A stretch of DNA of 61,128 nt from a virus (Duplodnaviria; Caudoviricetes), in IMG/VR virus record IMGVR_UViG_3300025000_000994, positions 1 through 61,128 of that record; one strand, 5' to 3'. The translations under genes and the position numbers were made by a program. Under the pieces are notes generated by a model. That model searched no databases and was not told the DNA's origin. It worked only from the letters and a program-made list of their open reading frames with translations. This document shows, one piece after another, positions 2,608 to 61,128 of this stretch; positions within the stretch are counted from its first letter, which is position 1, and the number at the start of each line of letters is the position of its first letter.

Positions 2608-2639
2608 TTTAGTTCAAACTATCTTGTTATTGCGAAATA

Positions 2640-2843
2640 TTAATATCTTACAGGCGTACGTCTGTCATAGACTTGTATCCTAATCATGTATGTGTCACTA
2701 GCGTTTACGCTTGATACAGTTCTATCCATGTGAGGCTGTAATTCAGCACAATTTGGCTGTCCGCTTGCAACGATTTTTGAACCTTCCATAATTGTGATAA
2801 TGTTTCCGTAAGGTATGACCTTAACAATCTCTTTAACCTTCAT
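2640..2843 (-). CDS. Hypothetical protein (67 aa) bracketed by two 24-bp palindromic sites
   Basis: RBS AAGGAG before the ATG at 2843; sites at 2613-2636 and 2855-2878. Confidence 0.6.
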   Translation of the reverse strand: MKVKEIVKVIPYGNIITIMEGSKIVASGQPNCAELQPHMDRTVSSVNASDTYMIRIQVYDRRTPVRY

Positions 2844-2878
2844 GCTACAACTCCTTCGCACTTTTTATATTTGTTGAA

Positions 2879-3448
2879 TCAATCTAACACATAAACCTCT
2901 AACCACTTCCTGCCAAACTCATTACACTCTACCTTACCAGCCATACATATATCCAGGTGACCATTGGTTATATCTCTGCCTCTGTCCATTACTATGAAAA
3001 CTCTATCGAAATAAGGAATATATACTCTCGCGCCAATCTCCAATTCCGGTCCTGCAGCAATAAATCCATCCTGAACCATTTGTCCTGATGCGGTAATGCC
3101 ATACTCAGGATCATCCGGTTCCTTCCCGCAAGATCCCTTCCAATATGCCGTGATTTCCATTATCATGCGAGTGCCGCGTTCACTGCCCCTGTCAACTTTA
3201 TCCTGCTTGGTGTCAAGCTGTTCCTGTAATGAGCCAATCTGCTCAGTTAGGGTGTTAATATATTGCTTATACTGAGTGCTCTCTGCTTGCATCGCATTAA
3301 CAGTATCTGTAAGGCTTAGAATTGCCGTTTTCTGTTTAGATAACATAATTTCATATTCGCGGCAGTTATCGTACAAACAAAGGGCAACTACGCAGGACAC
3401 AGTTATGATTAAAGCTATTATGTAATCTCTGCGTTTCAATCTATCCAC
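2879..3448 (-). CDS. Membrane-anchored 3D-domain (MltA-like) protein
   Basis: N-terminal hydrophobic helix, coiled coil, then ITAY..YGITASG..IAA..MDRG..LDI. Confidence 0.8.
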   Translation of the reverse strand: MDRLKRRDYIIALIITVSCVVALCLYDNCREYEIMLSKQKTAILSLTDTVNAMQAESTQYKQYINTLTEQIGSLQEQLDTKQDKVDRGSERGTRMIMEITAYWKGSCGKEPDDPEYGITASGQMVQDGFIAAGPELEIGARVYIPYFDRVFIVMDRGRDITNGHLDICMAGKVECNEFGRKWLEVYVLD

Positions 3449-3933
3449 TCCTTTACCGCCATACAGATATAACCTTGGGGTACAAACGGCTGTTTATCTA
3501 ATACATAAGGTACATCAAGCGTTACGGTATCCCCTGTGTAGCCTGTATAAGGATCATATTCCTCTAATACGAGAACGTCTCCAACTTGATAATCTCGGTC
3601 ATTCCAGCGGATTTCAAATGTCTTTTTACCGGATTTTATGACCTTAAAATATTCAGGCCATGTTTTAAGATGATGCGTTTTGTGTTTGTGATCTGGTTTA
3701 ATTCCATTGTGAATCTTTAATATCCATTCAGGAGCATCTATAAATTCAAACTCTCCTGGCTTAACACCTAAATGTTCACCATTTTCACATATTCCACAAA
3801 TTGCACCATGTGGATTTGATATTGCTGAGTATTCCATCCCGCTTCGTAAGATGGTACCTGGCTTTCCAGATACAACACCAAATGGGAAATCGGGTCTTAC
3901 ATTTTTTATCATGCGAATTTTAATTGTATCCAT
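3436..3933 (-). CDS. DUF3850/ASCH-like domain protein
   Basis: HHLKTWPEYFKVIKSGKKTFEIRWNDRDYQVGDVLVLEEY. Confidence 0.75.
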   Translation of the reverse strand: MDTIKIRMIKNVRPDFPFGVVSGKPGTILRSGMEYSAISNPHGAICGICENGEHLGVKPGEFEFIDAPEWILKIHNGIKPDHKHKTHHLKTWPEYFKVIKSGKKTFEIRWNDRDYQVGDVLVLEEYDPYTGYTGDTVTLDVPYVLDKQPFVPQGYICMAVKEWID

Positions 3934-3948
3934 TTCAATCCCCTTTCT

Positions 3949-4371
3949 TCATCCTACCACTACCTTCATTGTGAGCAAATCAGCCAGTGTAACCATTTCA
4001 ATCCTGCCGTGCCGATTCTTTATCAGTAATTTATCAGGATACTTTGTTTCAACTTCTCCGGATACACGCTGCGTTTTTCTACCCTCATACCGAGTCAAGG
4101 TTATTTTGCTACCCTTTTGGAGCTTTTCAATCTGTTGTTTTGCCCGGTTTATATTTACCGCAAGGCTTATTAATTTTTTATCTTCACACATGATTTTGTT
4201 ATTAAGCTTTATGTCATCGCTTTCATCTGGTTTAACTATTCCGCGCTTTTCATTGGTATAATGCTGTATTGTACTTTTACCGCAATTGTACAATTCACCT
4301 ATTTGCACATATGTCATACCAGCTTTGCGATGAGCGGATATTTCTTCTACTTGCTCAATTGTAAGTTTCAT
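3949..4371 (-). CDS. HTH domain phage protein
   Basis: GMTYVQIGELYNCGKSTIQHY HTH; near-identical to 50022-50444. Confidence 0.7.
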   Translation of the reverse strand: MKLTIEQVEEISAHRKAGMTYVQIGELYNCGKSTIQHYTNEKRGIVKPDESDDIKLNNKIMCEDKKLISLAVNINRAKQQIEKLQKGSKITLTRYEGRKTQRVSGEVETKYPDKLLIKNRHGRIEMVTLADLLTMKVVVG

Positions 4372-5996
4372 TGTGCAATTACCTCCTGTTGCTGGCACAA
4401 TTCCGGTAAATTCGCTTCAACCAACGCCTTTGAGAATGGCGGCGGCACACTGTTACCGCACCTGGCTACCTGAGCAGTTTTAGGATAAGGCTTTCCCGTG
4501 AAGTCCCTGTCAATGATGTAATCCTGTGGAAATCCCTGAGCCGCATATAATTCTTTTGGCTCCAGCATTCTCATGCCGATGTCCACAATTTGATAATCCT
4601 GTCCGTGAATGGTTACTATCCCGAAGCGATCTTTGCTGGTTATGGTCCTGAGTGGTTCATTAACGTTTTGTCCAATATCATCTTTGTTGCCGTAATAACT
4701 CATGAGGAAAGTTCTGACTTCTCCCCAATGACCTGGCCCAGCAACGATTGTTGGAATAGGCTCATTCATGGATCTCCCGTCACAATGGTTATTCATTTGT
4801 AAAAGGTGGCTTGTAACGATAGCATTATGGTCTTTGCCTGTTATGGTATGTATTGGTTCTGCAGTATCAGATCCTGCGCCATCATAAAACCCGCCATAAT
4901 ACTTAGATATGAACGCCGTAACAAGGCCGTAACGGTTTGATCCATCTAATGTCATTATGGGTTCCTCAACTGATTGCCCTCTGTGTTCGGAATGTGCTGT
5001 TTCGCTGTGATATTGAATAAGCGTGGGTGAAACTAACATATGCTCTGCTTTTGATACGATTGTTGAAAGCGGATCTTTAATGTCGTGCAGCCTATCACCA
5101 CCACCGGTTTGTCCGATTTGAGATATAACCGGAGTAAAAAGATAATGTCCGTTTACTGAAGTTACGGTGCTTAACGGTTTGGATATGCTTTCTGGCTCAT
5201 TGTCAAATTTGTAATTTACAATAAACGGCTTAGGATTATTCAGTACATATTTTTCAATGCCCTTTGCAATACGCTTCATGGTGTTCTCTGCAAGTGGCTT
5301 TTTACGGTCAAATATGCTAGGACACGGTATAGACCAATCAATACACTCTGCCGCTGTCCTGTATGGCTTTAGCAATCTGAACCTTACTTCTATTCTGTCG
5401 GGGTCTCCATGTGTGGGCTCAGGCCATATAATCGGTTTACCGTCACACCTTGCAATCAGGAAAAACCTCTTGCGGCTTGTAGGCGCTCCATAATCGCACG
5501 CCCTGAGTTCCCGGTATTCAACCTTATAACCTTGCCTTTTTAGTGCTTTAACAAACAGATTGAAGGTCTCACCTTTCTTAGCTGGGTCAGGCATATTATC
5601 TACCAGTAACGGGCCCCATGTTTTAAATTCCTCAACATTTTCCAACATAATTACTCTTGGGTGAACCATTTTCGCCCACTTGACAGCTACCCATGCAAGA
5701 CCTCTAATACTCTTTTCAACTGGTTTTCCACCCTTCGCCTTAGAGAAGTGTTTGCAGTCTGGAGAAAACCAACATAGCGCCACTGGTTGGCCTTTGGTTG
5801 CTTCTACCGGATTCACTTCCCACACGTTCTCACAGTACACTTTTGTGCCGTGGTGGTTCGCCTTGTACATAGCAATGGCGGCTGGATCGTGGTTAACCGC
5901 TATGTCAATCGGTCTGCCTATTGCCAACTCAATTCCTGTGGAAGCACCGCCACCACCGGCGAAATTATCAACTATAAGTTCTTTTATACTCTTCAT
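4368..5996 (-). CDS. C5 cytosine DNA methyltransferase with a repeat-expanded variable region
   Basis: Motifs DNFAGGGG, SPDC, ENV, RKR and GNSV; six P-x-x-T-[IVL] repeats. Confidence 0.9.
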   Translation of the reverse strand: MKSIKELIVDNFAGGGGASTGIELAIGRPIDIAVNHDPAAIAMYKANHHGTKVYCENVWEVNPVEATKGQPVALCWFSPDCKHFSKAKGGKPVEKSIRGLAWVAVKWAKMVHPRVIMLENVEEFKTWGPLLVDNMPDPAKKGETFNLFVKALKRQGYKVEYRELRACDYGAPTSRKRFFLIARCDGKPIIWPEPTHGDPDRIEVRFRLLKPYRTAAECIDWSIPCPSIFDRKKPLAENTMKRIAKGIEKYVLNNPKPFIVNYKFDNEPESISKPLSTVTSVNGHYLFTPVISQIGQTGGGDRLHDIKDPLSTIVSKAEHMLVSPTLIQYHSETAHSEHRGQSVEEPIMTLDGSNRYGLVTAFISKYYGGFYDGAGSDTAEPIHTITGKDHNAIVTSHLLQMNNHCDGRSMNEPIPTIVAGPGHWGEVRTFLMSYYGNKDDIGQNVNEPLRTITSKDRFGIVTIHGQDYQIVDIGMRMLEPKELYAAQGFPQDYIIDRDFTGKPYPKTAQVARCGNSVPPPFSKALVEANLPELCQQQEVIAQ

Positions 5997-6046
5997 TTCT
6001 TAAATTCCTGCCCTTCCAATACTGGTACTATTTTTATTTAAGCCCC

Positions 6047-6844
6047 TCACAATTTGTATAATCTATCAATTTCTTCGTCACTTGGTATTGATCGCTGCTC
6101 AAAATTGCCTTTTTGGGGTGTTGTATTTTGTTGTGCTTGTTTTGGCCGGTCTTTTTGAAGCAGTAATGTGTCGAACTTTTCTCGGAGCTTTTTGGCGGAT
6201 AATATATTTGATTTCCAAAAACTATCCTTTTGGCTGAATTCCATAACAACATTGATTTGTTCAAGTGTCCTTTTATCAAGCCGTGTCATTTTGTCAAACT
6301 CAGCTACCCACTTTGTTAAATCATCTGGTGTTTTTGCTCCTGGGTTATTTTGAAGCATAAGAGCTTTTAATTTTTCAGCCATCGTCATGTGTGACGATGA
6401 ATATATCTTTTCTTTATTCTTACATTCTTTAGTTCTTACATTCTTGTTAGTTGTTAGGTCTTTGTTACCCCTTTGTGACCCGTTTGTTAGTTGCTTTGTT
6501 AGGTCTTTGTCTGTCGACTGGTACAACTCCCAATTTAGAACGGTTACAAGCCTTGACTCCTTTGTTGATTCGTATGTTAGAAATTCAAGTTTTTCAAATC
6601 TAACAAAGGCAGTACGTATATTTTGTATTGAGATACCCTTACCACATTCTTTCTTAATTTTTGTAAGACTTGTAATTTTCTGTCCAGGTTTACATCTGTA
6701 CTTTTTACCCTTCCATTCCCATTCCTCTTCATCATGGTTAACCATACATAAAAGAGTAATGAGAATAGTTTTCTGTTCAGGTGTTGATAACTTCCATATT
6801 GGTTTTTCAAGGAGCACTCTGTAGAGTTTTATCCAGCCATCCAT
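6047..6844 (-). CDS. Phage replication initiator (replisome organiser)
   Basis: Starts MDGWIKLYR after RBS AAGGGTGA; C-terminal FWKSNILSAKKLREKFDTL; internal iterons. Confidence 0.8.
   Translation of the reverse strand: MDGWIKLYRVLLEKPIWKLSTPEQKTILITLLCMVNHDEEEWEWKGKKYRCKPGQKITSLTKIKKECGKGISIQNIRTAFVRFEKLEFLTYESTKESRLVTVLNWELYQSTDKDLTKQLTNGSQRGNKDLTTNKNVRTKECKNKEKIYSSSHMTMAEKLKALMLQNNPGAKTPDDLTKWVAEFDKMTRLDKRTLEQINVVMEFSQKDSFWKSNILSAKKLREKFDTLLLQKDRPKQAQQNTTPQKGNFEQRSIPSDEEIDRLYKL
6443..6520. repeat. Iterons, probable origin of prophage A
   Basis: TTGTTAGGTCTTTGT twice plus several TTGTTAG/TTTGT repeats next to an AT-rich tract inside the initiator gene. Confidence 0.65.
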
Positions 6845-6982
6845 TAAATCACCCTTTACATTCAAGAAGCGAAGGCCGCCTCTTGTCGGAATCCTTTGAA
6901 CAAATATTAAGTTTTTGATTATCAAAAGATAACCTTTCTTGTTTTATATTTTTATCCCTCTGCCTTCACCGAGGGGTAAAGT

Positions 6983-7693: not shown

Positions 7694-8632
7694 TTAGAAC
7701 CCCCGTCTTGTAGATTTATTTACTGGAGGCATATCAATGACAGCTTGTTCTTGCTTTTTTGCATCCTCTTGCTTACTGCTTGCCGGTGGTACTTCATCCT
7801 CAACTGGTGTAGACTCAACTACTGGCTCAATATCAATGATCTCAGAGTTAGCATTTGCCCCTATCTCTTCTTCTGCTTCTGCTTCCTCAATATCCGAATA
7901 GCTTTGCTTTGCATATGAGGAAAGCAAACTAGCATCGCTGGAACCGTTTATTATCGGCTTGCAAGCTTTATTTGTAACAGTTTTCTTGCACATTTCAGCA
8001 GTAAACTTGCCATGCACACTACTCCCTTTCAATTCCCCTTTGTCGTCAAATACACCCATTTTTGATTGTTTCCACGCTTGGTGAATTTCATCGAGCGTCA
8101 TTATAGTGGCTTCTTCTTTACCAGATTTATATAACACCGTACAGTAAGCAGCTACGATCTTATCTTTCTTCACGTTCTCGATTTTCTGATTATGCTTTGT
8201 AACAAATGTCTTGCCACGCAGTTTGCCATATTCAAATTCATCACCCTCGTATACAACGTCAGGCAATATATCTTCAATGTCGGGGTTTACTGCTTTGGCA
8301 ACTGCCATGGACCCGAAGTATGAGCGCTGCATCTGAAGCTTGTTGCCGTATACGATAAAGTAACATTGCTTCTTGTCGGGATTCAGTCCTTGTACTACCA
8401 TACTGAGAAGCGAATTTGCGATGCTGTCTTTCGTGCAAACTTCAAGTGCAGGTTTATAATCTTTACTTTGTACCTCCTGCAGCTGTAGCCATGCTGATTT
8501 TAAGGCGTTCTCAGGGCTGTAGTTTTCAGGGAAGTATAACTCGTGGTTGTTCTGGAACTGCTTCACCTTTGCCGCTACGATGTCTACTGTTTCCCTCTTT
8601 ACTGCGATTTGTGTGTTCTGCTTAACTTCCAT
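7694..8632 (-). CDS. recT: RecT-family single-strand annealing recombinase
   Basis: SIANSLLSMVVQGLNPDKKQCYFIVYG..QRSYFG and EMCKKTV. Confidence 0.85.
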   Translation of the reverse strand: MEVKQNTQIAVKRETVDIVAAKVKQFQNNHELYFPENYSPENALKSAWLQLQEVQSKDYKPALEVCTKDSIANSLLSMVVQGLNPDKKQCYFIVYGNKLQMQRSYFGSMAVAKAVNPDIEDILPDVVYEGDEFEYGKLRGKTFVTKHNQKIENVKKDKIVAAYCTVLYKSGKEEATIMTLDEIHQAWKQSKMGVFDDKGELKGSSVHGKFTAEMCKKTVTNKACKPIINGSSDASLLSSYAKQSYSDIEEAEAEEEIGANANSEIIDIEPVVESTPVEDEVPPASSKQEDAKKQEQAVIDMPPVNKSTRRGF

Positions 8633-13517: not shown

Positions 13518-13769
13518 TTACTCTCCTGCATCTTTCAAGCACTTATGGCATACTTTTATACCATACTTTACTAATCCCTCAACCAGATCATCAGATTCCT
13601 TGCACACTCCGCATGTTGGTTGATACTTTTTGAGAATGATTTCTCCATTTTCGCCCATGAAGATTTCCAATGGAGTACCCTCATCAATTGCCTGTGTCGT
13701 GCAAATTTCCTGTGGAATAACCAATCTGTGGAGGCTATCCACCTTTCTTACAATGCCAGTAGCTTTCAT
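13518..13769 (-). CDS. AbrB/SpoVT-family transcription regulator
   Basis: MKATGIVRKVDSLHRLVIP..PLEIF..IILKKYQP plus a C-terminal CxxC pair. Confidence 0.85.
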   Translation of the reverse strand: MKATGIVRKVDSLHRLVIPQEICTTQAIDEGTPLEIFMGENGEIILKKYQPTCGVCKESDDLVEGLVKYGIKVCHKCLKDAGE

Positions 13770-14282: not shown

Positions 14283-14289
14283 AACGACC

Positions 14290-14481
14290 TCCTATAAATT
14301 TATTTTGTTTCGGAGAGGACAGTCGCGACCTGCCTCTCCACCATTTGTACATACTGCCTAGGACTTAACACCCGTTTTTATATTGGACATTTCTGCCCTG
14401 CTCTTATGGGTTTTGGTGGAAGATATGAGATTGACTACTCACTGTCTCCCAGATAAAGCGGGTCGATTCACCGCCCGCTTT
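14290..14481 (-). ncRNA. Conserved structured intergenic RNA, copy A (contains a tRNA-like minihelix at 14414-14450)
   Basis: Homologous to 60020-60214 with stems preserved despite loop and stem-length changes. Confidence 0.55.
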
Positions 14482-14501
14482 GGTTTGCACAGTCACCGTA
14501 T

Positions 14502-14642: not shown

Positions 14643-14725
14643 AGGCTTCCTCCGACACTTTTATTCTTTAGCCCGGTACATATCGACCTGTACCGAATAA
14701 TAGTGGGCTAGCTAGTTGGCTTTAT

Positions 14726-14763
14726 GGATGAACCCGCCAGAACCGCTTAGAAACTTTACAAAT
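14726..14763. repeat. 38-bp conserved element (further copies at 57310-57347 and 60496-60533)
   Basis: GGAT(G/A)AACCCGCCAGAACCGCTTAGAAACTTTACAAAT, at least 37/38 identical. Confidence 0.9.
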
Positions 14764-14970
14764 GAGTGGCATCACCTACCTTTGTGGATATAATTTGCAG
14801 ATAATTATTGCTCAATATTTTCTGAAATGGTATGAATGTACGTTTGTTCGTCAATTTCCAATTCCACAATATCGGTTTCGCTGTTATATCCGACTACTCT
14901 GCCAACATGCCCAGCACAAGCGCCTCCCTTTATTTCTGCCATGAGGTTAACGAAAACCTTTTTCACGTTC

Positions 14971-15105
14971 TCACTCCCCTTCCATCCCTATATCCACCAC
15001 CCGCCCATCCCGGACGGTAAAATATGTGCCTGTTAGCCTGTACCAGTCTGCGAACCAGTGGATGTCGGTTTGCTCATTGAGGATGATTGATTTTTCAAGT
15101 GGCAT
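14971..15105 (-). CDS. Conserved 44-aa protein
   Basis: MPLEKSIILNEQTDIHWFADWYRLTGTYF..; near-identical copy at 57544-57678; RBS AGGAGG. Confidence 0.7.
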   Translation of the reverse strand: MPLEKSIILNEQTDIHWFADWYRLTGTYFTVRDGRVVDIGMEGE

Positions 15106-15134
15106 GTGAGCCTCCTTTGTGCGGATTCTCCTTC

Positions 15135-15335
15135 TTATCCGCAATTACAATTATCACCTCTGGCCGTGATTGTACCCTTTGCTACCCTGGAATCTAAAAA
15201 TCTACCAGTATCAGTACCCTTTACACATTCAAAGCCATTTGCACCGCAAACAAGGTATCGGCAGCATTCATTGCCCTGTCCTATTTTGCATACGGTTTTT
15301 ACTTTGTCTATTTGTACCTTCTTTGTGTTTTCCAC
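15135..15335 (-). CDS. Small Cys-rich protein
   Basis: CKIGQGNECCRYLVC; copy at 60962-61128. Confidence 0.7.
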   Translation of the reverse strand: MENTKKVQIDKVKTVCKIGQGNECCRYLVCGANGFECVKGTDTGRFLDSRVAKGTITARGDNCNCG

Positions 15336-15386
15336 AATGCCCTCACTTTCTGCAATGTCTTATTGCACATCTTTATAAACTCCGTA

Positions 15387-15473
15387 CTACTCCACCTCCC
15401 ACACTTCCAACCATACCCTCCCAAACTCAAAGCATTTCTCCGCACTCGCCATGTACACGTCCAATCTCCCCTC
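15387..15473 (-). pseudogene. Remnant 3' end of a 3D-domain gene
   Basis: Translates GRLDVYMASAEKCFEFGRVWLEVWEVE*, almost identical to the end of 58892-59320; the upstream part is missing. Confidence 0.75.
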
Positions 15474-18580: not shown

Positions 18581-18660
18581 TAGCTTGTCCTCCTGCATAA
18601 ATCATTTTAAAACCTTGGTATATTTCCGACTTTCACCGGATATACTTATACTGGGGAAGT

Positions 18661-19034
18661 GCTTCGTTTACGAATCAGTGCAGTAAAAAAATATCTAGCG
18701 TGAAAATCTGATCCATTGTTATTTCCGGATAATAACTTTTGAAATATTCCTTGATTTTTAGCATTTCCGAGCGTTTGAATTCGGTTTTGCCTTTGAGTTT
18801 TAAAGATGCTGCTTGCTGTGATACGTCAAGAATTGCGGCAATGTCCTTGTGTTTCATGTTTCTGAATGCCATGAGTTTGGCGAGTTCTGGATACATTGAT
18901 TTGACCCCTTTCCTTCGTACATTAGATTCGTTTACGAATCATCTATAAATAGGTTAGCACTTTGTGGCTTTGTTGTCAACAATTTTTATTGCATTTTTAA
19001 AACATTTATATTATACTTGATTCGTAAAGTAATC
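18661..19034. promoter_or_regulatory. Genetic switch: three operators and divergent sigmaA promoters
   Basis: GATTCGTTTACGAATC at 18925-18940 with variants at 18661-18676 and 19019-19034; TTGACA-N17-TAACCT (minus) and TTGCAT-N17-TATACT (plus, 18989-19017). Confidence 0.75.
18675..18896 (-). CDS. Cro-like XRE HTH regulator
   Basis: HTH KDIAAILDVSQQAASLKLKGKTEF; divergent from the repressor. Confidence 0.8.
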   Translation of the reverse strand: MYPELAKLMAFRNMKHKDIAAILDVSQQAASLKLKGKTEFKRSEMLKIKEYFKSYYPEITMDQIFTLDIFLLH

Positions 19035-19055
19035 AAATATGAAAGCGGTGTATAT

Positions 19056-19262
19056 ATGAGTGTTTTTGCAAGAAAAATTAGACGTTTACGCGAAGAAAAA
19101 GGAATGACAACAAGAATACTTGCTGAAAAGATGGGAATATCATGTGGGCATATAAGTAAGTACGAAAATGACAAACATGAGCCTACACTAAGTGTACTTA
19201 ATAAATATAAGGAAATTTTTAACGTTTCGCTTGATTATTTATGTAATGACGAGGAGGAATAA
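19056..19262 (+). CDS. CI-like XRE repressor (68 aa, no S24 peptidase domain)
   Basis: IRRLREEKGMTTRILAEKMGISCGHISKYEN..FNVSLDYL. Confidence 0.85.
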   Translation: MSVFARKIRRLREEKGMTTRILAEKMGISCGHISKYENDKHEPTLSVLNKYKEIFNVSLDYLCNDEEE

Positions 19263-19264: not shown

Positions 19265-20449
19265 ATGGCACGGCCTAAAAAACAGAACGACAAGCCATTA
19301 ACACGTAATCCTAATGGAATGGGCAACATTTATAAAAGACCTGATGGCAGGTATGAATGGAAGCAGATGGTTGATGGTGAGGTGCGGTACGAATCAGATA
19401 TAAATCTGTCTGAACTAAGAAGGAAAATAAAGAAACAAACAAACATAGGCATTAATAAGGATAAAACAAAATTATTTGAATGGATAGCCTACTGGCTTGA
19501 AAACTATGTTCAGCCTTATAAAAAACCTTCCACGTACAATAACTACAAATTCGCTTACGAAAAGTACATCAAAAAATATATGAGAAATGTCCAGCTAAGG
19601 CATGTTACAAAGATGGATGTTCAAAAAATGATAACAGACCTAATTAATGATAAGTATTCACCGTCATTAATAAAGAATGTTCGCAAGGCTTTAAGTGCTG
19701 CATTTATTTCAGCAAATGAGGAGGAACAGATCGTTGACTTCAACCCAACCAGAGACACTAAACTGCCCAAAGGCAGAACCCCTACCCGAAAAACTTTGAA
19801 ATTAGAGGAGCTAATTGCAGTTATTAATAAGTTTAAGACATCAAGGTGGTTATATGCTATCTTATTTATGCTTGCTACAGGATTGAGAAGGGGCGAACTA
19901 TTAGCCGTAAGATGGTCTGATATTGACTTTAAAGAAAAGCGTATCGGCATAGAAAACAATCAAACTCAATACGGGATTGACACGCCAAAAGACAATGAAT
20001 ACCACTATGTGCCGTTAACAGATCACGCCGTGGCCTATTTGTCTGGATGGAAAAACCAGCTTCAAAAGGAATACAACCCAGCCATATATCACAAAGTTGA
20101 TACTATTTTTGTATCAAAAAGTGGACAACCCTTACGACCTTCAAGTTTTAATAACACACTGGCAAAGCGCAAATTTGATTTTAAAGTAACGCCACACATG
20201 TTCCGGCATACCTTCGTATATCTCTCAAAGGGCAAAATAAGCCTGAGTGAATTGCAGGAAGCATTAGGACACGACCAGTCAACTACTACATTGGATATAT
20301 ACGGTCTTATGCTCGCTGATACTGTTGCTGTTGCTGATAAAATTGAAATAGCATACAAAGAATTGGATGAAGCTATGAAGGAAAATAAAAAGAAAAAGCA
20401 GGAAAGTAATGTTGTAGATTTCACACAAAGAAGATTAGCAAAACAATAA
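19265..20449 (+). CDS. int: Tyrosine integrase
   Basis: N-terminal arm-binding GNIYKRPDGRY; catalytic TGLRRGE, HMFRH, LGH and DIYG. Confidence 0.95.
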   Translation: MARPKKQNDKPLTRNPNGMGNIYKRPDGRYEWKQMVDGEVRYESDINLSELRRKIKKQTNIGINKDKTKLFEWIAYWLENYVQPYKKPSTYNNYKFAYEKYIKKYMRNVQLRHVTKMDVQKMITDLINDKYSPSLIKNVRKALSAAFISANEEEQIVDFNPTRDTKLPKGRTPTRKTLKLEELIAVINKFKTSRWLYAILFMLATGLRRGELLAVRWSDIDFKEKRIGIENNQTQYGIDTPKDNEYHYVPLTDHAVAYLSGWKNQLQKEYNPAIYHKVDTIFVSKSGQPLRPSSFNNTLAKRKFDFKVTPHMFRHTFVYLSKGKISLSELQEALGHDQSTTTLDIYGLMLADTVAVADKIEIAYKELDEAMKENKKKKQESNVVDFTQRRLAKQ

Positions 20450-45818: not shown

Positions 45819-46070
45819 AAAAAGCCTCCTTGAAAAATTATTCTGAAAAATTTGTGAATTGTGAGAGGGTATTATATATAGCGTGACCGGGTGCCTCCCC
45901 CGATGGCCCCCGCCCCTACCCATCCAGTATCATCGCATAATCACGTACACATCAAATCATACTCATATACGCTACAAAATACACGCATAATATACTATGT
46001 ACGCTTACATACTGTAGGTACGTAGCCATATTTATACCCTTGATTACACGAAATAAACCATTCGCGTACT

Positions 46071-49154: not shown

Positions 49155-49200
49155 GGCCTCAGCTCTCCTTTCTATGTTTGAACTATCTTGTTATGTTGAA

Positions 49201-50025
49201 CTAACTGATTAAACTTATTTGCTTGCCAACCGGCTCATAATTCATCCATAAAACTTCTTGCCTCTGCTGTCCACCTTCACACCTGGCTTGCCGTTTTTCT
49301 GTATGCCATCCCTCCAGGAGGTTGCTGTACAATTCACTTTCATACCCGGATATCATCACGGGCCCCGGATGTTTCTGCAGGAGCTCGAGTAATTGAGTGT
49401 GATCTTGATCTGTCATTTCATGAGCATAAATGCGGCCGCTGCGGGTACTTCTCACATACGGAGGATCCGCATATATGAAAACGTATGACCTTGCATATCT
49501 CTCTAAGAGTTGAGTAGCTGCCTGGTTTTCTATGTTTACTTGATGGCTTGGTACATGCTTAAATCTTTTGGATGTTTCTATAAGCCTTGCCGGTAACTTT
49601 GTAGCCCATTGGTCTACATTGCCGTTTAGATCCTGAATATTATTTCTCCATCCAGTTATATCACTTGTTTTGGATCCTATTGCCTGCCACATTCTTACGA
49701 GAAATCTTCTGGCATCCTCGAGGCTTTCACCGATCATTTCATAGCTGCTTTTATATTCCTGCCTGCTCCATGGTGTGAACTCGATCATGCGAGCCAGTTC
49801 TTCAGGGCAATCCCTAATTACTTTAAACAGGTTTACTACATTGCCATCCAAGTCATTGATTGTTTCTATAACCGACCGCTTTTTATTAAAAAATATAGCC
49901 CCGGATCCAAAGAAGGGTTCAAGATAAGTCATTTTCTCGTAGCCTTCCGGAAAGTATGAAATAATCCATTCTGCTGTACTCCATTTACTACCCGGATATT
50001 TTAACACTGTTTTTATATCACTCAC
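49201..50025 (-). CDS. Dam-like N6-adenine DNA methyltransferase
   Basis: KYPGSK, EPFFGSG, INDLD and ADPPY. Confidence 0.9.
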   Translation of the reverse strand: MSDIKTVLKYPGSKWSTAEWIISYFPEGYEKMTYLEPFFGSGAIFFNKKRSVIETINDLDGNVVNLFKVIRDCPEELARMIEFTPWSRQEYKSSYEMIGESLEDARRFLVRMWQAIGSKTSDITGWRNNIQDLNGNVDQWATKLPARLIETSKRFKHVPSHQVNIENQAATQLLERYARSYVFIYADPPYVRSTRSGRIYAHEMTDQDHTQLLELLQKHPGPVMISGYESELYSNLLEGWHTEKRQARCEGGQQRQEVLWMNYEPVGKQISLIS

Positions 50026-50444
50026 CCCACTACCACCTTCATAGTCAGCAGATCAGCCAGCGTAACCATTTCAATCCTGCCGTGCCGATTCTTTATTAGT
50101 AATTTATTAGGATACTTTGTTTCAACTTCTCCGGACACACGCTGTGTTTTTCTACCCTCATACCGAGTCAAGGTTATTTTGTTACCCTTTTGCAGCTTTT
50201 CAATCTGTTGTTTTGCCCGGTTTATATTGGTTGCAAGGCTTATCAACTTTTTATCTTCACACATGATTTTGTTATTAAGCTTTATATCCTCGCTTTCATC
50301 TGGTTCAACTATTCCACGCTTTTCATTGGAATAATGCTGTATTGTACTTTTACCGCAATTGTATAACTCACCTATTTGCACATATGTCATACCAGCCTTG
50401 CGATGGACGGATATTTCTTTTATTTGTTCAGTTGTAAGTTTCAT
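50022..50444 (-). CDS. HTH domain phage protein
   Basis: Near-identical to 3949-4371. Confidence 0.7.
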   Translation of the reverse strand: MKLTTEQIKEISVHRKAGMTYVQIGELYNCGKSTIQHYSNEKRGIVEPDESEDIKLNNKIMCEDKKLISLATNINRAKQQIEKLQKGNKITLTRYEGRKTQRVSGEVETKYPNKLLIKNRHGRIEMVTLADLLTMKVVVG

Positions 50445-52183: not shown

Positions 52184-52588
52184 TTAAAATGGAAGTTCGT
52201 CATCCTCTAATAGTGTCGTATTATACTCACCGTCATTGCTCTGGCTTAATGGTTTATCTGCGCTTCCGGATTCAGATTTCTTCCCGTTGCAAAAAGTAAA
52301 ATCGTTTACAACAATCTCGGTAATAGTATGTTTTTTGCCTTCTTTGTCCGTCCATTCTCTTGTTGCAAGCCTCCCAGATATTCCAATCAGATCACCCTTG
52401 CCAAAAAACTTTGTAATGTTCTCCGCTGTCTTTGTCCATGCCTGACAGTTAAAGAAGAAAGTTTTCTTCTTGTCGCCAAACCCATCATCAACGGCTATTG
52501 AAAAACTGCATACCGCTGTGTTGTTGGCTGGCAAGTATCGTAATTCAATGTCCTTTGTGATGCGGCCTATAATATTAACACTGTTCAT
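52184..52588 (-). CDS. ssb: Single-stranded DNA-binding protein
   Basis: MNSVNIIGRITKD; acidic tail DDELPF. Confidence 0.92.
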   Translation of the reverse strand: MNSVNIIGRITKDIELRYLPANNTAVCSFSIAVDDGFGDKKKTFFFNCQAWTKTAENITKFFGKGDLIGISGRLATREWTDKEGKKHTITEIVVNDFTFCNGKKSESGSADKPLSQSNDGEYNTTLLEDDELPF

Positions 52589-52592: not shown

Positions 52593-53045
52593 TCAATCCC
52601 CTTTCCGCTTTTTATATAACTCCCTAAACTGTCCCAATATAAAATCCGCAGCCTTGTCCTTCTCTACAAACTTCAATTCAAGTTGAAACTTATGGCACCA
52701 GGTTGCAAGGAAACTTTTCAAATCGTTTGGCATCATTCTGCTACGGTACTGGTGGGCTTCTAGCTGCTCCATTGAAGCCTCAACCATTAATATGACCTTG
52801 CAACCTTTTGACCGCTCAAATTCCCGTTTAAAGCGTTCACGGCCTTTTGTAAAATTGCCGATTATTTCATCCAGTGAACCTTTGCGCTCGACAACAATTT
52901 CATTTTCATAGCTTTTGCCATCAACCTCAAAACTGTAATCTCCATAGTTTAATTTTCGCCGGACATATGGAATTTTGAGCGCATCGAGTTTTCTTAAAAT
53001 ATGTAAATCTTGCTCTCTGGTATCGACAATAATTGTGCCTTTCAT
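52593..53045 (-). CDS. ERCC4/XPF-family nuclease
   Basis: VDTRE..GDY..VERK. Confidence 0.85.
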   Translation of the reverse strand: MKGTIIVDTREQDLHILRKLDALKIPYVRRKLNYGDYSFEVDGKSYENEIVVERKGSLDEIIGNFTKGRERFKREFERSKGCKVILMVEASMEQLEAHQYRSRMMPNDLKSFLATWCHKFQLELKFVEKDKAADFILGQFRELYKKRKGD

Positions 53046-53046: not shown

Positions 53047-53805
53047 TCAGCCGCAAAGCTCCAAATATTCAACCGGCTTGGTTAAGATCTTGGTTGACTT
53101 GCAATAGTCACACCTTCCGCACCGAGTAGGCACGATCAAGCCCTTTTTGATATCTGCAAATCTTGGAGCGTATTGTATAACCATATCAAGACAATAATCA
53201 AGTCTGGATTGTGGGATACTGATTATTTCTAAATCCGGTTCGGGCTTTTGTTTTGTGGCCCCAGCAATGAAGAATGGTAGGTTATTGTCCTCTATGAATT
53301 GATATATAGCAGCTTGAATGTCGTAGCCCCACGCCTCAACAAAAGAGAGTTTTAATCCATCTTTCCATATACCGTCGAAATCTTTCATTATCTTCAAATC
53401 AACAATCTTATCGCGCGGATGGTAACTGTCTATTTTGATTTTGAACGGGATGCCCATAATTTCACCAGTTTTAATAACTTGCTTCTCGCCAGACATATAT
53501 TGCTGAAACAGTTCATCACGTTCAAGCCGGGCAATTATGTACTCAGCATGTTTGTAGTCTGATTTAAGCTCACCCTTTTGCGTAAATATTTCTGGATTTT
53601 GTGCTTTGAATAAATCAAGTGTTTTTTCATAGTGCGCGTCAACATAAGATCCAACTAGCAAACTGACCGATTTTTCACGGGCATATTCACCTTTTATCTC
53701 CGCCAATGCAGCGGCTTCACATTCCATAAATGATTTGAATTGACTGCACCCCATGTATTTCATGTTCATTTCAGTAGAAAAATAGTTTTCAGCAGTAAGC
53801 ATCAT
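53047..53805 (-). CDS. PD-(D/E)XK exonuclease (DUF3799/RecE-like)
   Basis: KIKIDS..IVDLK..YDIQAAIY and CGRCDYC. Confidence 0.8.
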   Translation of the reverse strand: MMLTAENYFSTEMNMKYMGCSQFKSFMECEAAALAEIKGEYAREKSVSLLVGSYVDAHYEKTLDLFKAQNPEIFTQKGELKSDYKHAEYIIARLERDELFQQYMSGEKQVIKTGEIMGIPFKIKIDSYHPRDKIVDLKIMKDFDGIWKDGLKLSFVEAWGYDIQAAIYQFIEDNNLPFFIAGATKQKPEPDLEIISIPQSRLDYCLDMVIQYAPRFADIKKGLIVPTRCGRCDYCKSTKILTKPVEYLELCG

Positions 53806-55741: not shown

Positions 55742-56027
55742 TTACTTCTCGACCTCCCTATTTATTTGTTCCTGTAATTCCTCAATGCGGTTATATGCTT
55801 CATCCAACTGTTCCTCTAATATTTCAACCGCCTTACCATATTTTTTTACCATATTACCTATGTCGCTTAAATCAACATTACTTGGGAAATGGTCTGTGTC
55901 TATTGTGGTTCTCACCTTCTCACCTCCATTGCATATTTATACATTTACCGCATATTTGCGTTTCTGCTTGACCTGTGCTATACTCTGCTTAGTTGTTTAC
56001 CTTTGCCGCTTGTGTGAGCGGCTTTTT

Positions 56028-56873: not shown

Positions 56874-57054
56874 AATTTAAAATCAATATGCCTTTCCTTG
56901 CTCCCTATCGGCTTGCTTGCCTCCTGCTTGTCCAACGCTGTGTTAACCACGCAAAGCATATACCCAGTTCCACCCGCTATCATCATGCACAGGATGGTGG
57001 CAATAAGGATTTTGATAAATGGGTGCAAATCGTGTAAAATCATGATGTAGCCTC

Positions 57055-57261
57055 CTAACCTCTTGTCCTGCGTTCCATCTTCCTGCGCTTGCTTTGACTT
57101 CTGCGAGCGTTGTAGCCTAATTCCGCATTGCCGTCAAAATAATGTCCTCTGCCACCCATTGATTCAACTGGAGTATACGCCTTTGTGCCTTGCAATGCGC
57201 CGAATAAACTTGCAAGTAAGCCTACCTTCTTTGCGCTTGTTACTTTTGATGATGTCTGCAT
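57055..57261 (-). CDS. Small basic protein
   Basis: RBS AGGAGG; syntenic with 14028-14282. Confidence 0.5.
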   Translation of the reverse strand: MQTSSKVTSAKKVGLLASLFGALQGTKAYTPVESMGGRGHYFDGNAELGYNARRSQSKRRKMERRTRG

Positions 57262-57543
57262 CTTAACCCCTCCTATAAATTTATTAGCCTTTCGGCTGGT
57301 AGCGGGCTTGGATGAACCCGCCAGAACCGCTTAGAAACTTTACAAATGAAATGTAATTATCAGCCGGCTTTATTTGTCCGGCGCATGGGCATCACCTACC
57401 TTTCTGTGGAAACTACCAATATTTCAAAATAGCAATTATCGCTTTAAATAGCCATTTCAGACAAAAACCTGCAAATACAAGGTATCCAATAATTAGAACA
57501 CTTAAGACGATTGCAACCGGGATTGTGATATTTTCCATCTCCA

Positions 57544-57678
57544 TCACTCCCCTTCCTCCCCTATATCCACTATCCGCCCATCTCGGACGATAAAATATGT
57601 GCCTGTCAACCTGTACCAGTCTGCGAACCAGTGTATGCCGGTTTGCTCGTTGAGGATGATTGATTTTTCAAGTGGCAT
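57544..57678 (-). CDS. Conserved 44-aa protein (copy B)
   Basis: Near-identical to 14971-15105. Confidence 0.7.
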   Translation of the reverse strand: MPLEKSIILNEQTGIHWFADWYRLTGTYFIVRDGRIVDIGEEGE

Positions 57679-57716
57679 GTGAGACTCCTTTGTGTGGATT
57701 GTCTTGTTATTACGAA

Positions 57717-58847
57717 TTAACCCAATAAACTCATTTGACCTCTGATCTGGTTTTTGTATTCACGCAGCCGCTCGGCTTCCTTTTTCTGTTTGAGGGCCTT
57801 ATAATTGTTGTATTGCTGACGGTATCTGTAGCTATCACCAAACACATTCCACGCCGCCTTTACCAAATTTGGCTCAAACGGTCGTATCTTCTCTAAATCC
57901 TCTACTGCCCTTGCTGATATAGAACAACCACAACAACCTGTGCGCTTTAAGCCGTATACCTCATAAGCATCTGAGTATCTAATTTTGTGATAATCTTTGT
58001 ACCACTGCTTGTCCGCATCAGACACGTAATATAGTGGTCTAAGCCGATATTGCCCATCTGCCGTCTCGGCAAAACACATGGCCGTATTATCCTTGCGCGG
58101 GACAGATCGCATGCCGCCCTCGTCCCTGCGTTCGCCCGTAATTACCATGTCAAACGGCTTTTGGACGCTATGTGCAAGTTGCTTTTTGCAGCAATCACAA
58201 CATTTGTTGCTGACTTTAAACGAGATTGGATTCTCTTTGATGAAGTCCAGCATATACTTTGATGAATTTATAACCAGTTGAATATCGGGTCTGGGTTCTC
58301 CCTTGGAATTGCAGCAGCATAGGAAATTAATCGTTGTTTCGCACCCCGGATATCGTTTTTTAAGTTCCGCGCGTTTTGCCACCTTATCCTCTGCGTCTGC
58401 GTATTCTGCAGCGATCGATAGCGGGATGTTTTTCTTCTGAATTCCTTCGAGCCCGGCTGACATGATCTTCGATACAAACGGCTGACCATATTCCCTCGTG
58501 GCCTGTACTATGTTCTTCTTGGGTCGATGATCTCCAATTGTGATGCCGTACAACTCCTCCATTTTGCGTACATGGCGTTTTGTTGCCTCCATTTCAAGCC
58601 CGGTGTTAAAAAAGCAGTATTGGATAGGTGGGAGATTGAAAGTCTTACGCACGGTCTCGATTAAATGCAACATGATATCGCTGTCGCTACCTCCAGAATA
58701 AGAGCAAATCGCATTCGGATATTCAATCAACCTTTTGGCTATGATGCTTTTTATTGCCTCAAATTTGCGCGGCGCTTCAAAATCTGCGTACGGTGGCCTG
58801 TCTGTGTATACTCTACTTTTAAATTCTGTGTTCTTATTGGATCCCAT
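57717..58847 (-). CDS. PAPS-reductase-family (PP-loop, Fe-S) protein
   Basis: SYSGGSDS, CCDCCKK, TGERRDEG and RTGCCGC. Confidence 0.8.
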   Translation of the reverse strand: MGSNKNTEFKSRVYTDRPPYADFEAPRKFEAIKSIIAKRLIEYPNAICSYSGGSDSDIMLHLIETVRKTFNLPPIQYCFFNTGLEMEATKRHVRKMEELYGITIGDHRPKKNIVQATREYGQPFVSKIMSAGLEGIQKKNIPLSIAAEYADAEDKVAKRAELKKRYPGCETTINFLCCCNSKGEPRPDIQLVINSSKYMLDFIKENPISFKVSNKCCDCCKKQLAHSVQKPFDMVITGERRDEGGMRSVPRKDNTAMCFAETADGQYRLRPLYYVSDADKQWYKDYHKIRYSDAYEVYGLKRTGCCGCSISARAVEDLEKIRPFEPNLVKAAWNVFGDSYRYRQQYNNYKALKQKKEAERLREYKNQIRGQMSLLG

Positions 58848-58891
58848 ATAAAACCTCACTTTTTATTGCGCAATATTTATAAACTCCGTAC

Positions 58892-59320
58892 CTACTCCAC
58901 CTCCCACACTTCAAGCCATACCCTCCCAAACTCAAAACATTCCTCCGCACTCCCCATATACACATCCAGCCTTCCCCTTGTAATATCCCCGCCGCAATCC
59001 ATCACCGTGAATACTCTGTCAAAGTAGGGTATATACAGTTTCGTCCCTATCGGATATTCCTTCAGCCATGCCGCTATAAATCCGTCCTGCACACGTTCCC
59101 CGCTTGCCGTTATGCCGTATGTGGGGTCGCTCGGCTTCTTGCCGCAGGAACCTTCCCAATAGGCGGTACATTCCATTATGCGGCGGTCAACTCGCTCTGT
59201 GCCTCTGCTGGGCTTGTCCTGTTGTTCCTGCGCCTCTTTAACCTGTGCCGATAATTCATAAACTTGCTTCCGATTACTGGCCTTTTCTTTTGTTCTTCCA
59301 GGTTCCATGCCTTCCACCAT
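58892..59320 (-). CDS. 3D-domain protein (start uncertain)
   Basis: CTAYW..YGITASG..MDCGG..LDVY. Confidence 0.75.
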   Translation of the reverse strand: MVEGMEPGRTKEKASNRKQVYELSAQVKEAQEQQDKPSRGTERVDRRIMECTAYWEGSCGKKPSDPTYGITASGERVQDGFIAAWLKEYPIGTKLYIPYFDRVFTVMDCGGDITRGRLDVYMGSAEECFEFGRVWLEVWEVE

Positions 59321-59413
59321 CCCTGGACTTCTTTGACGACCTTCACAATAGCGATCAGGCAGGCGGCGATGATGATAAGCAGGAATATGCTGAATGTATC
59401 CATGGCGGACCTC

Positions 59414-60013
59414 CTAACCTTTCGGAGCATCGAGCATGGCAGCCTTTTCTTGCAAAGCTCTAAGCATTTCCGGTATATTAAGCCTTTGAATTATGTCGAT
59501 TGAAAGTTGATTTTTAAGTGTCGCTTCAAGAGTTTTGACAATGGTTTCCTCTGCGTCTTTGCGAGCTGTCTGAATCATTTTACTTACCTTTGACGCAAGC
59601 TCTTTTTCGAGGTACTTTTTGATGAAGTATTCATTGATGGACAATTTAGCATCATTTGAATATCTTGGTTCACAACCGTTTTCATCAAACACTTTTTTAT
59701 TAAGGAAACTTTCGTATTGCATACCAACAAACTTGCTCATGGGTATCATTTCAACCTTTGAATCCCAACTATTGCCCTTATGAGGAATTTTCATATTCTC
59801 AATTTTGCCCCTCAAAGTATCATTGAGAAATTCGTCAATAACCTTGCCTGTTGTCTCTTGAATTGTACTGCTTAGTTCTTTTGTGATTTCCTTTGTGGCA
59901 TCGGCTGTTATTTTGGATTTTAAAGACGATATGACTTCCTGCTTTATCGTGTCGTCTATTCCTCCACCTTCTTCCAACCAATCCAGTTCTACTTCAATGC
60001 TAAACTTAGCCAT
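59414..60013 (-). CDS. Phage hypothetical protein
   Basis: RBS GGGAGG; 199 aa, helical. Confidence 0.7.
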   Translation of the reverse strand: MAKFSIEVELDWLEEGGGIDDTIKQEVISSLKSKITADATKEITKELSSTIQETTGKVIDEFLNDTLRGKIENMKIPHKGNSWDSKVEMIPMSKFVGMQYESFLNKKVFDENGCEPRYSNDAKLSINEYFIKKYLEKELASKVSKMIQTARKDAEETIVKTLEATLKNQLSIDIIQRLNIPEMLRALQEKAAMLDAPKG

Positions 60014-60019
60014 CCTAAC

Positions 60020-60214
60020 CTCCCTATAAATTTATTTAGTTTCGGAGAGGACAGTCGCGACCTGCCTCTCCATTCCGTTGTACATACTGCCCAGGACTTA
60101 ATACCCTTTTTTATTCGGCTTTCGCCTGCTCTTATGGGTTTTGGTGGAAGATATGAGATTGGTTACTCACACTCTCCCAGATAAAGCGGGCGAACCTCAT
60201 TGATTAGCCCGCTT
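60020..60214 (-). ncRNA. Conserved structured intergenic RNA, copy B (minihelix at 60142-60178)
   Basis: Homologous to 14290-14481. Confidence 0.55.
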
Positions 60215-60270
60215 GTGTTATATTTAAATTTGTTGCTAGGCCGTATCGTGCGCCTCTCCGATGGAGTACG

Positions 60271-60408
60271 TTAGACGAATCCGCTTGGGTATCCGACTAC
60301 ATTTGAACGCTGTACTGGCTTGGTAAAGTAGTGGCATTGAACAAACTCAAACGGTTTAATGTAACACTTCAACGCCTCAAACCAGCTGTACCCGAAAATT
60401 CCATCCAT
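60271..60408 (-). CDS. Conserved 45-aa microprotein (copy B)
   Basis: RBS GGAGG; homologous to 14502-14642. Confidence 0.7.
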   Translation of the reverse strand: MDGIFGYSWFEALKCYIKPFEFVQCHYFTKPVQRSNVVGYPSGFV

Positions 60409-60601
60409 CCCTTTACCTCCGACACTTTTATTCTTTAGCTCAGCACGACCGACCGCGCGCTTTAATTATCTGCGAGCTTCACAAGTGGGCTTTATGGATA
60501 AACCCGCCAGAACCGCTTAGAAACTTTACAAATAAAAAATAAAATAATAATTATCAGCCGGCTTTATTTGTCCGGCGCATGGACATCACCTACCTTTCAA
60601 G

Positions 60602-60937
60602 TTATGCCATTATTTGCTCGCCACAATTTGGGCATTCCCTGTATAGCCAGTTACGTTTCCAAAAGCTCCACCCTTCGCACATTGCCATATCGTGAATAGT
60701 TAGCGGTATAAACTGGCCCTTAACCTCGCCCGTGATGTCGTAGTAGCTGTTTCCTATTTTTGTAACAATGTGGTCTTTCGTTTGAATAAAATAAGGCTCT
60801 GCATCGGGATAAATTACCCTTAAAAACTTGTAGAATTGATAGCAACCGCCGTTAAGATATATTTTCTCGATGTAGATAATGTCTGTATTTCTTAATGCAT
60901 CTATAAGGGTTATAGGGTTCAAATCCACCGTTATCAC
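60602..60937 (-). CDS. Hypothetical protein with GGCY motif
   Basis: YLNGGCYQF..HIVTKIG..YYDITG. Confidence 0.65.
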   Translation of the reverse strand: MITVDLNPITLIDALRNTDIIYIEKIYLNGGCYQFYKFLRVIYPDAEPYFIQTKDHIVTKIGNSYYDITGEVKGQFIPLTIHDMAMCEGWSFWKRNWLYRECPNCGEQIMA

Positions 60938-60961
60938 CTACCTTTGTGTGGATAATCTTGT

Positions 60962-61128
60962 TTATACACAATTACAATTATCACCTCTGGCTGTGATTGC
61001 GCCATTCGCCACCCTGGAATCTAAAAATTTACCAGTATCAGTACCCTTTACACATTCAAAGCCATTTGCACCGCAAACAAGGTATCGGCAGCATTCATTG
61101 CCCTGTCCTATTTTGCATACGGTTTTTA
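60962..61128 (-). CDS. Small Cys-rich protein (5' end cut by the window edge)
   Basis: Near-identical to 15135-15335. Confidence 0.7.
   Translation of the reverse strand, partial: KTVCKIGQGNECCRYLVCGANGFECVKGTDTGKFLDSRVANGAITARGDNCNCV

Follow-up and report, generated by a model that had tools for sequence, protein, structure and literature searches.

Short AACAAGA-core linkers between accessory genes of related temperate phages as candidate sites of homology-driven exchange

The origin of phage mosaicism is an old question in which random illegitimate joining followed by selection is set against exchange at short conserved linkers, and conserved boundary or linker sequences are found at the module joints of lambdoid and dairy phages. 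Integron cassettes carry a promoterless open reading frame (ORF) with an oriented attC site at or near its stop codon; these sites are variable in sequence and imperfectly symmetrical, attC itself being a long inverted repeat that is imperfect and folds in single-stranded form. The dif and pdif sites of Xer systems have arms longer than those considered here around a 6-bp centre, and their modules are bounded by sites of alternating orientation and moved by host recombinases. In T4-type phages, according to the excerpted text of PMC2839356, recombination between small repeated intergenic cassettes shuffles ORFs, and the excerpts of PMC3945230 describe phage Rad52-like recombinases as driving mosaic formation on short, diverged homology and quote a minimal efficient pairing segment of 23-27 bp for Red-beta. 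Here we looked at the virus record IMGVR_UViG_3300025000_000994, a linear viral metagenome record of 61,128 bases (the whole of which is referred to as the window), and at a set of 24-nt sequences at its early gene boundaries that a first-pass annotation had taken for a site-specific cassette exchange system and of which several belong to a short intergenic linker found also in related phages.

Nearly all genes of the window lie on its minus strand, and two early regions on that strand, A (17.5 kb down to 1) and B (61.1 down to 45 kb), are collinear with an offset of ~46 kb and share patches of homology only, of 73-92% identity. As A and B are collinear yet patchily homologous the record holds two related phages, and its early regions are those of two related temperate phages that are present either as tandem prophages or through an assembly that ran past one genome length in a strain mixture. 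Related contigs G001-G005 and G007 were fetched whole for comparison and further loci were added, L055 being the same contig as G001, L118 a part of G001 and L178 belonging to G002.

The real family among the 24-mers is a coding-strand linker of ~24-30 nt that starts at a stop codon and has AACAAGA as its core. We counted 13 clear copies and 5 marginal ones across the window and five related contigs; every copy is on the coding strand and lies at a stop or overlaps one, with the next ribosome-binding site (RBS) usually 1-25 nt later. The 24-mer stands behind at least eight unrelated genes in several contigs from different samples, at 2-6 copies per genome, while most junctions carry no linker. 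Our alignment of the copies (A1) has a conserved core with AACAAGA between variable arms, and the copies are mosaic around this shared core, one left part occurring with different right parts and vice versa. Where the neighbouring genes are unrelated the similarity between copies is restricted to about -9 to +31 in 27 of 34 pairs. The copy at 49177 (copies are named here by their lower coordinate) and that at 4459-4482 of G003 share a tract identical at 21 of 21 positions and then differ, the flanks being unrelated, and G001 23636 matches G003 4459 at 15 of 15. The degenerate copy at 15120 is homologous to 57693 in its right third and RBS.

The linker was followed at the PAPS-reductase-like gene of region B (Table 1), behind whose homologues in L118/G001 and L178/G002 the 24-mer of 57693 is retained, with homology stopping right after it. 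These two were the only loci with a similar 24-mer, in both cases directly behind the PAPS stop, among the 64 related viral loci recovered with the PAPS query, so that 62 of 64 loci carry no such site. In L118 a second linker copy precedes the PAPS leader and the gene has a copy on either side. The PAPS-adjacent 24-mer diverges at about the rate of the gene (18 and 19 of 24 positions identical against 80-82% for PAPS), the core is not retained in G001 22442 or G002 6972, and the core position is occupied by the actual RBS in L199 4880 and in G004. Downstream, the 44-aa gene has a linker copy ahead of it in four contexts with different upstream genes. The junctions of L199 and L200 are identical in two assemblies. 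A 21-nt degenerate form of the linker matched only G001 in the viral collection and the exact form is therefore rare there. The matches listed from a 15-mer scan of viral contigs came from many unrelated samples and were judged, unchecked, to be chance; only L055 was used. No relatives were found for the 69-aa gene, nor for a 134-aa gene in the genome contigs.

Table 1. Linker copies, trailer-leader modules and genes of the window discussed in the text
Feature	Coordinates	Strand	Context
Linker copy, best family score	57693..57716	-	From the PAPS-reductase-like stop to the RBS of the 44-aa gene; begins 0 nt after TAA
Linker copy	49177..49200	-	From the Dam-type methyltransferase stop to the RBS of the 69-aa gene
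Linker copy	2613..2636	-	Behind a 67-aa gene; homologue of 49177 but then a 131-nt insertion
Linker copy, good dyad (7/8)	60947..60970	-	Overlaps the stop of the Cys-rich gene copy; YunG-like gene next
Degenerate linker copy	15120..15143	-	Same place, behind the Cys-rich gene of A; arms 7/8, 13 bits in the position weight matrix
Marginal linker copy	57405..57428	-	Family likeness only in the right third (ATCCRCA-like, then RBS)
Second module	58867..58890	-	3D-gene trailer and PAPS-reductase-like gene leader; homologous to 15363-15386
Second module, region A	15363..15386	-	3D trailer (behind the gene remnant) and Cys-rich gene leader
Second module	2855..2878	-	Behind another 3D-domain gene, 2879-3439
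PAPS-reductase-like gene	57717..58847	-	PF01507, E 5.6e-15; 64 related viral loci with diverse neighbours
66-aa Cys-rich gene	15135..15335	-	Unit in A; second copy 60963-61128 cut by the window end
44-aa gene	57544..57678	-	Downstream of the swapped units; A copy 14971-15104; 90% DNA identity A/B
3D-domain gene, 3' remnant	15387..15471	-	Mosaic joint inside the gene; homology with 58863-58976 only
RecT-like single-strand annealing protein	7694..8632	-	Region A; phrog_148, E 2.3e-62; candidate catalyst of homology-driven exchange
Exonuclease	53047..53805	-	Region B; phrog_1227, phrog_3490 and phrog_44 cover the exonuclease and neighbours
ERCC4-type nuclease and SSB	52593-53045 and 52184-52588		Region B; adjoin the exonuclease
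Tyrosine integrase of the prophage	19265..20449	+	PF00589, PF14659; sole site-specific recombinase found

The letters and minus-strand positions reported for the nine 24-mers and two weaker candidates proved accurate. All nine overlap a stop codon or begin 0-3 nt past one, the next RBS follows most of them, and AACAAGAY occurs at four sites and WTATAAA at three, in one orientation throughout. Their description as a single palindromic family did not survive: the WTATAAA trio forms a separate module, and the sites are not independent, three pairs (2613/49177, 15363/58867 and 15120/60947) being homologous copies in A and B. Arm complementarity does exceed background, with 5, 3, 7, 2, 4, 5, 4, 5 and 7 of 8 positions (mean 4.67) against a mean of 1.99 for all 24-mers of the window, 23 of 61,105 of which reach 7 and none 8, but good dyads are seen only at 15120 and 60947. 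On RNA folding one of the nine, 15120 (-8.9 kcal/mol, z -3.18), beats its shuffles and is the sole stable hairpin, with 2613 and 2855 at z of about +1. Across 15 copies the arms pair in 60.8% of cells compared with 54.7% in shuffles (5 of 500 reach it), with modest covariation at the pairs 2-23 and 3-22 and mostly unpaired letters at 5-20 and 7-18.

A leave-one-out position weight matrix placed seven of the nine sites in the top 5-12 of 122,210 positions, the exceptions being 57405 (rank 87) and 15363 (rank 341). Scanned against shuffles the window yielded no member beyond the seeds: at 12 bits or more it gave 10 hits, nine of them the seeds, where 60 Markov shuffles gave 3.25 +/- 1.8, and at 8 bits or more 26 against 25.9. 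The 112 loci from the 15-mer scan are invalid as a negative set for the matrix since each contains the 15-mer by construction. As a word AACAAGAY is not enriched overall (9 matches where 6.2 are expected, with 18 of 100 shuffles reaching 9). The enrichment at stop codons that had been proposed was found in the window, where the 2% of sequence close to called stops contains 3 of the 9 AACAAGAY matches (P 6e-4), but with the strict 8-mer it failed in the relatives alone (1 of 9 stop-adjacent, P 0.17). The 7-mer AACAAGA, which was chosen after the data had been seen, is stop-adjacent in 5 of 38 cases in the relatives alone (odds ratio 7.5, P 9e-4).

Neither weaker candidate joins the family, correct as their letters are. 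That at 55929-55952 (minus strand) does not directly follow a stop but lies ~75 nt downstream of one and after a hairpin; the stretch is conserved in G003 and G004, contains a TATAAA-type box and is more likely a promoter region than a family member. The one at 46045-46068 (minus strand) has a 7/8 arm dyad 2 nt past a stop, and it is unlike the AACAAGA family and gave no hit to the matrix; the gene upstream of it is a 206-aa gene containing a helix-turn-helix (HTH). As for the WTATAAA sites, all three sit after the ends of 3D-domain genes and are the trailer of such a gene fused to the leader of whichever gene follows. The trailer and the leader joined at 58867 recur in G001, behind the 3D gene and in front of PAPS respectively, the right part of 15363 matches the leader of the Cys-rich gene in G004, and 2855 has a 20-nt tract in common with G003 4932-4987. 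The Pfam 3D-domain match of the gene in front of 2855 is slightly under the cut-off.

The exchange between A and B was described correctly in the first-pass annotation: between the end of the 3D gene and the 44-aa gene, A carries the Cys-rich gene and B the PAPS-reductase-like gene. The order in A is thus 3D trailer, Cys-rich gene, linker and 44-aa gene, and in B 3D trailer, PAPS gene, linker and 44-aa gene. In B the copies 60947 and 57693 are direct (20 of 22 letters identical over +8 to +29) and bracket 3.26 kb lacking in A, which has a single hybrid site where B has both copies and the intervening sequence. Different ORFs also lie between the same kinds of boundary at 2640-2843 of the window, 3516-3825 of G001 and 4473-4931 of G003. 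A gene at 3949-4371 of A was swapped exactly ORF for ORF against 50022-50444 of B with no site.

A count of breakpoints upheld the proposed association with the sites, BLAST homology endpoints lying within 12 nt of 10 of 15 linker copies, the figure for the remaining gene junctions being 71 of 225 (odds ratio 4.3, P 0.009). The sequencing runs that contain the window are groundwater metagenomes of one study, and all four, kept as contigs, came from two samples with no RNA run listed. In the contigs of the two samples, one end falls within 57693-57716 or 60947-60970 for 4 of the 15 joints listed. One of these, 57700 to 60962 with 7 letters between, is the arrangement of A, and the joint 57708 to 59213 is present in both samples. 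The four joints have short sides of 25-44 letters and therefore represent the linker in other contexts, with no rearrangement caught in the act.

The AACAAGA linker is not alone in its portability. When 152 junction windows from four genomes were compared, an exact tract of at least 12 nt without two-sided homology was common to 81 pairs; the coding controls gave 12.3 (maximum 22). The 81 pairs span many families of leaders and trailers and about 6 of them involve the AACAAGA linker. A conserved non-coding stretch with hairpins at 14283-14501 and 60014-60270 (minus strand) is common to A and B, and part of it is found in G001 and G004. The 17-nt leader at its end stands ahead of three different genes (starts 14282, 57261 and 60013) and of two G004 junctions, which makes the stretch another portable linker family. 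A segment repeated threefold at 14725-14765, 57309-57404 and 60495-60598 (minus strand) is also found in G003, with 41 nt identical between 14725-14765 and 57309-57349. A terminator-like GC hairpin and T-rich run was noted ahead of two copies of this segment, where the consensus scan reported none. At the linker copy 2613-2636 there is a 131-nt non-coding insert (2482-2612, minus strand) exactly between its right edge and the leader of a 64-aa gene, which B lacks at the corresponding position (49177 onward), and which has a predicted fold of -31.4 kcal/mol with several hairpins, and had no further copy in the sequences compared and no match in Rfam.

Conserved intergenic linkers used by homology-driven exchange, in the manner of the promoter-early stem-loop (PeSL) elements of T4-type phages, are our preferred explanation, which we regard as about equally likely to be right or wrong. 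The linker is a portable unit of ~24-30 nt between some small accessory genes, beginning with the stop of the upstream gene or within a few bases of it. Its A-rich core, AACAAGA, has variable flanks in which dyad symmetry is weak, and the RBS of the next gene follows. We read it as one among a number of families of short, conserved tracts between genes, trailers and leaders, at which related phages in one cell may exchange, gain or lose genes through short imperfect homology. Likely catalysts would be phage annealing or exonuclease functions (the RecT-like protein in A, the exonuclease in B) or host RecA, with selection retaining those joints by which neither ORF nor the downstream RBS is damaged and with no dedicated site-specific recombinase involved. 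The analysis establishes the repeat family, where it lies and on which strand, its occurrence between unrelated genes and the surplus of homology breakpoints at it; the recombination mechanism, and the part of the linker as substrate rather than bystander, we infer.

A number of observations weigh against it. The tracts of perfect identity between copies are 14-21 nt, below the 23-27 bp quoted for Red-beta in the excerpts of PMC3945230, and exchange would therefore be rare. No recombination event was seen, and in runs kept only as contigs starts, ends, circles and rare rearrangements are all invisible. The precise beginning at the stop, the weak dyad and the modest covariation at 2-23 and 3-22 are unexplained by homology-driven exchange. 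Breakpoints in the relatives alone (5 of 9 copies against 32% elsewhere) give no significant excess, and the overall excess is partly a matter of ascertainment because the reader who selected the window copies had the breakpoints in view. The sequences all come from metagenome assemblies, in which switching of the assembler between co-occurring relatives at shared short repeats could have made chimeras of some joints.

Several signals that might reside in the linker were tried and rejected. The switch regions of region A of the window, of G001 and of G003 have three copies each of a different 16-18-bp palindrome, and the linker, being shared between phages whose operators differ, is not the immunity operator. 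In region A the operator is a 16-bp palindrome that occurs around the cI/cro switch at 18660-18677, 18925-18941 and 19018-19035, one copy beginning directly at the cro-like stop codon, and the left arm of the linker resembles half of this operator. A scan of 56900-61128 gave no sigma-70 promoter match on the coding strand that overlaps 57405-57428, 57693-57716, 58867-58890 or 60947-60970 and no terminator-like site, eight of the nine sites being without a stable fold. A REP-like (repetitive extragenic palindrome) element or hairpin was likewise rejected, only 15120 being stable as RNA. There were no Rfam matches in the whole window, and a DnaA box in the right arm, scored with a short motif, was not enriched (40 matches against 33.8 expected).

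What the first-pass annotation had proposed is that the 24-mers are the arm-spacer-arm core sites of a tyrosine recombinase, host Xer-like or some phage enzyme, which moves RBS and ORF cassettes in the manner of an integron or pdif. Its description of short oriented sequences at the boundaries of small, apparently promoterless RBS and ORF units was borne out, and such units, each in one orientation, behind a stop and ahead of an RBS, are integron-like as they stand. The bracketing of variable segments by direct copies, the excess of arm complementarity, a 131-nt insertion exactly at the right edge of 2613-2636 and several breakpoints at the border of spacer and right arm (57693 against 15120 from +13, G004 against 15120 at ~+16 and 15363 against 58867 after the TATAAA tract) also fit such an enzyme. 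Conserved inverted arms would be expected of it but left and right arms each occur in many versions with good dyads at 2 of 9 sites; the spacer differs between copies, even at the orthologous spot behind PAPS in the window, G001 and G002; and in place of a fixed crossover the homology boundaries are scattered from -9 to +31. The two ends of the A/B swap lie in two unrelated modules, hence one enzyme would not see both, while other linkers do the same job, most PAPS loci lack the site, and joints occur also without any site (3949-4371) and inside a gene (15387-15471). Nor was an enzyme found: besides the prophage integrase there was no integrase-like hit among the early genes scanned, in which not all small ORFs were included. 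The window, G001 and G003 have in common an antirepressor, a cI-like protein, an integrase, SSB and a 57-aa protein, and beyond the integrases, those of G001 and G003 being only 37-39% identical to that of the window, these three share no recombinase or other relevant DNA enzyme. The 57-aa protein looks hydrophobic by eye and has no PHROGs match. Among the proteins scanned there was no IntI gene with attI and a cassette promoter, the copies being scattered through two early operons; the unit has 24 nt where attC is long, and one in nine sites folds better than shuffles as RNA; and every copy has the same orientation relative to the genes, against the alternating orientation of dif and pdif sites. 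Recombination of the tyrosine-recombinase, integron or pdif type is therefore not supported, with no recombinase shared apart from divergent integrases, with variable arms, spacers and breakpoints and with other linkers behaving alike, and we hold this reading to be very unlikely. The chance is similarly slender that the dyad-tending 24-mers are true sites for a host Xer-type or unrecognised recombinase in a small temperate clade with scattered integron-like exchange in its early operon; were it so, each site would be divided between two cassettes, its stop-abutting left part going with the one upstream and its right part with the one downstream, and the structured insert by 2613-2636 would be a captured non-coding cassette.

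An expression signal is a different proposal, in which the linker would be an unstructured A-rich standby or enhancer tract of the polycistronic early transcript, through which the following small gene could be translated on its own, or the site of a dyad-preferring host or phage regulator on that transcript or on DNA, and mosaic joints would pile up at it because joints elsewhere are lethal. The strict coding-strand orientation and the fixed place between stop and next RBS agree with this, as do structure no greater than that of shuffles (2613 and 2855 included), the weak dyad with some covariation, and the actual RBS at the core position in L199 4880 and G004. Set against it, orthologous 24-mers diverge about as fast as the neighbouring gene and may lose the core (G001 22442, G002 6972), there are only 2-6 copies per genome, no DNA-binding protein is common to the carrier phages, the linker is not the immunity operator and the B copies have no sigma-70-like coding-strand promoter; we consider an expression signal unlikely. 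It might also be that the linker has no role and that its copies are leftovers of one ancestral intergenic region hitch-hiking with either neighbour, to which selection by the reader and possible assembly chimeras would be added. The three homologous A/B pairs among nine sites, the failure of the matrix to find anything beyond its seeds in the window, a family limited to a handful of contigs with the window's runs from one study, and Logan contigs that break at many junctions with no listed piece spanning the stretch are what one would then expect. This is harder to reconcile with a 24-mer behind at least eight unrelated genes in contigs from different samples, with junctions of L199 and L200 identical in two assemblies, with the joint 57708 to 59213 in both samples, with a core enriched by stops in relatives and with breakpoints commoner at copies than at other junctions, and we judge it quite improbable. 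Homology-driven exchange at conserved linkers is the most parsimonious reading, and it agrees with the role that PMC3945230 describes for phage Rad52-like recombinases.

Ahead of region A lies a lysogeny module. It comprises the Rha/ANT antirepressor, the cro-like gene (18675-18896), the cI-like HTH gene (19056-19262) and the tyrosine integrase, and late genes occupy 44-23 kb of the window. The large terminase (TerL) is ~39% identical to Staphylococcus and Bacillus phage terminases, and comparison of the window with phage records gave only three weak DNA matches. Region A also encodes an SbcC-like protein. A 315-aa protein at 18-965 (minus strand) has DUF4096, the N-terminal domain of IS4/IS5-type transposases, together with a sigma-70 region-4-like HTH, and no catalytic transposase domain was found in it. 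At 13518-13769 (minus strand) early region A encodes an 83-aa protein with a MazE/AbrB-type antitoxin domain (PF04014) for which no toxin partner was identified.

If the linker does serve exchange, a discrete and countable sequence in a natural phage population would provide a substrate on which to measure the homology need of phage annealing proteins, and the 'regulatory cassette shuffling' of lytic T4-type phages would be extended to temperate phages of Gram-positive-like lineages. The finding shows no new recombination machine. In comparison with dif and pdif the linker is similar in having inverted arms around a central region and modules bounded by short sites, and differs in its 8-8-8 layout, its poorly conserved arms and its copies which are all direct. 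Like integron cassettes it presents a promoterless ORF followed by an oriented, variable site at or near the stop, unlike them it has no IntI or attI/Pc platform that we could find, and its 24-nt sites, 15120 apart, have no stable fold as RNA and are scattered rather than arrayed. With the linkers of lambdoid and dairy phages and the relaxed recombination of Rad52-like proteins, as far as the excerpts of PMC3945230 describe the latter, it shares joints at gene boundaries, short flanking homology and phage annealing proteins, the difference being one discrete 24-30-nt unit behind many unrelated genes with identity tracts below the pairing segment. The stoperators of Cluster A mycobacteriophages are, in the excerpted text of PMC6550527, also short asymmetric sites, mostly outside promoters and in one orientation to transcription, but they match the phage's own operator, vary with the repressor and number up to about 30 per genome; three phages with different operators share the linker, which is therefore set apart from them. 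Similar in their logic are the PeSL elements as described in the excerpts of PMC2839356. These comprise a strong sigma-70-like promoter and a terminator stem-loop, of which the linker has neither, and the linker is shorter, begins at a stop codon and belongs to temperate siphovirus-like phages, in whose polycistronic early operon it lies. In both cases, however, small repeated intergenic motifs flank non-essential ORFs in variable regions and insertions, deletions and replacements between relatives map to the copies, and as with PeSL (PMC2839356, in part) exchange between copies of the linker would proceed without a dedicated recombinase.

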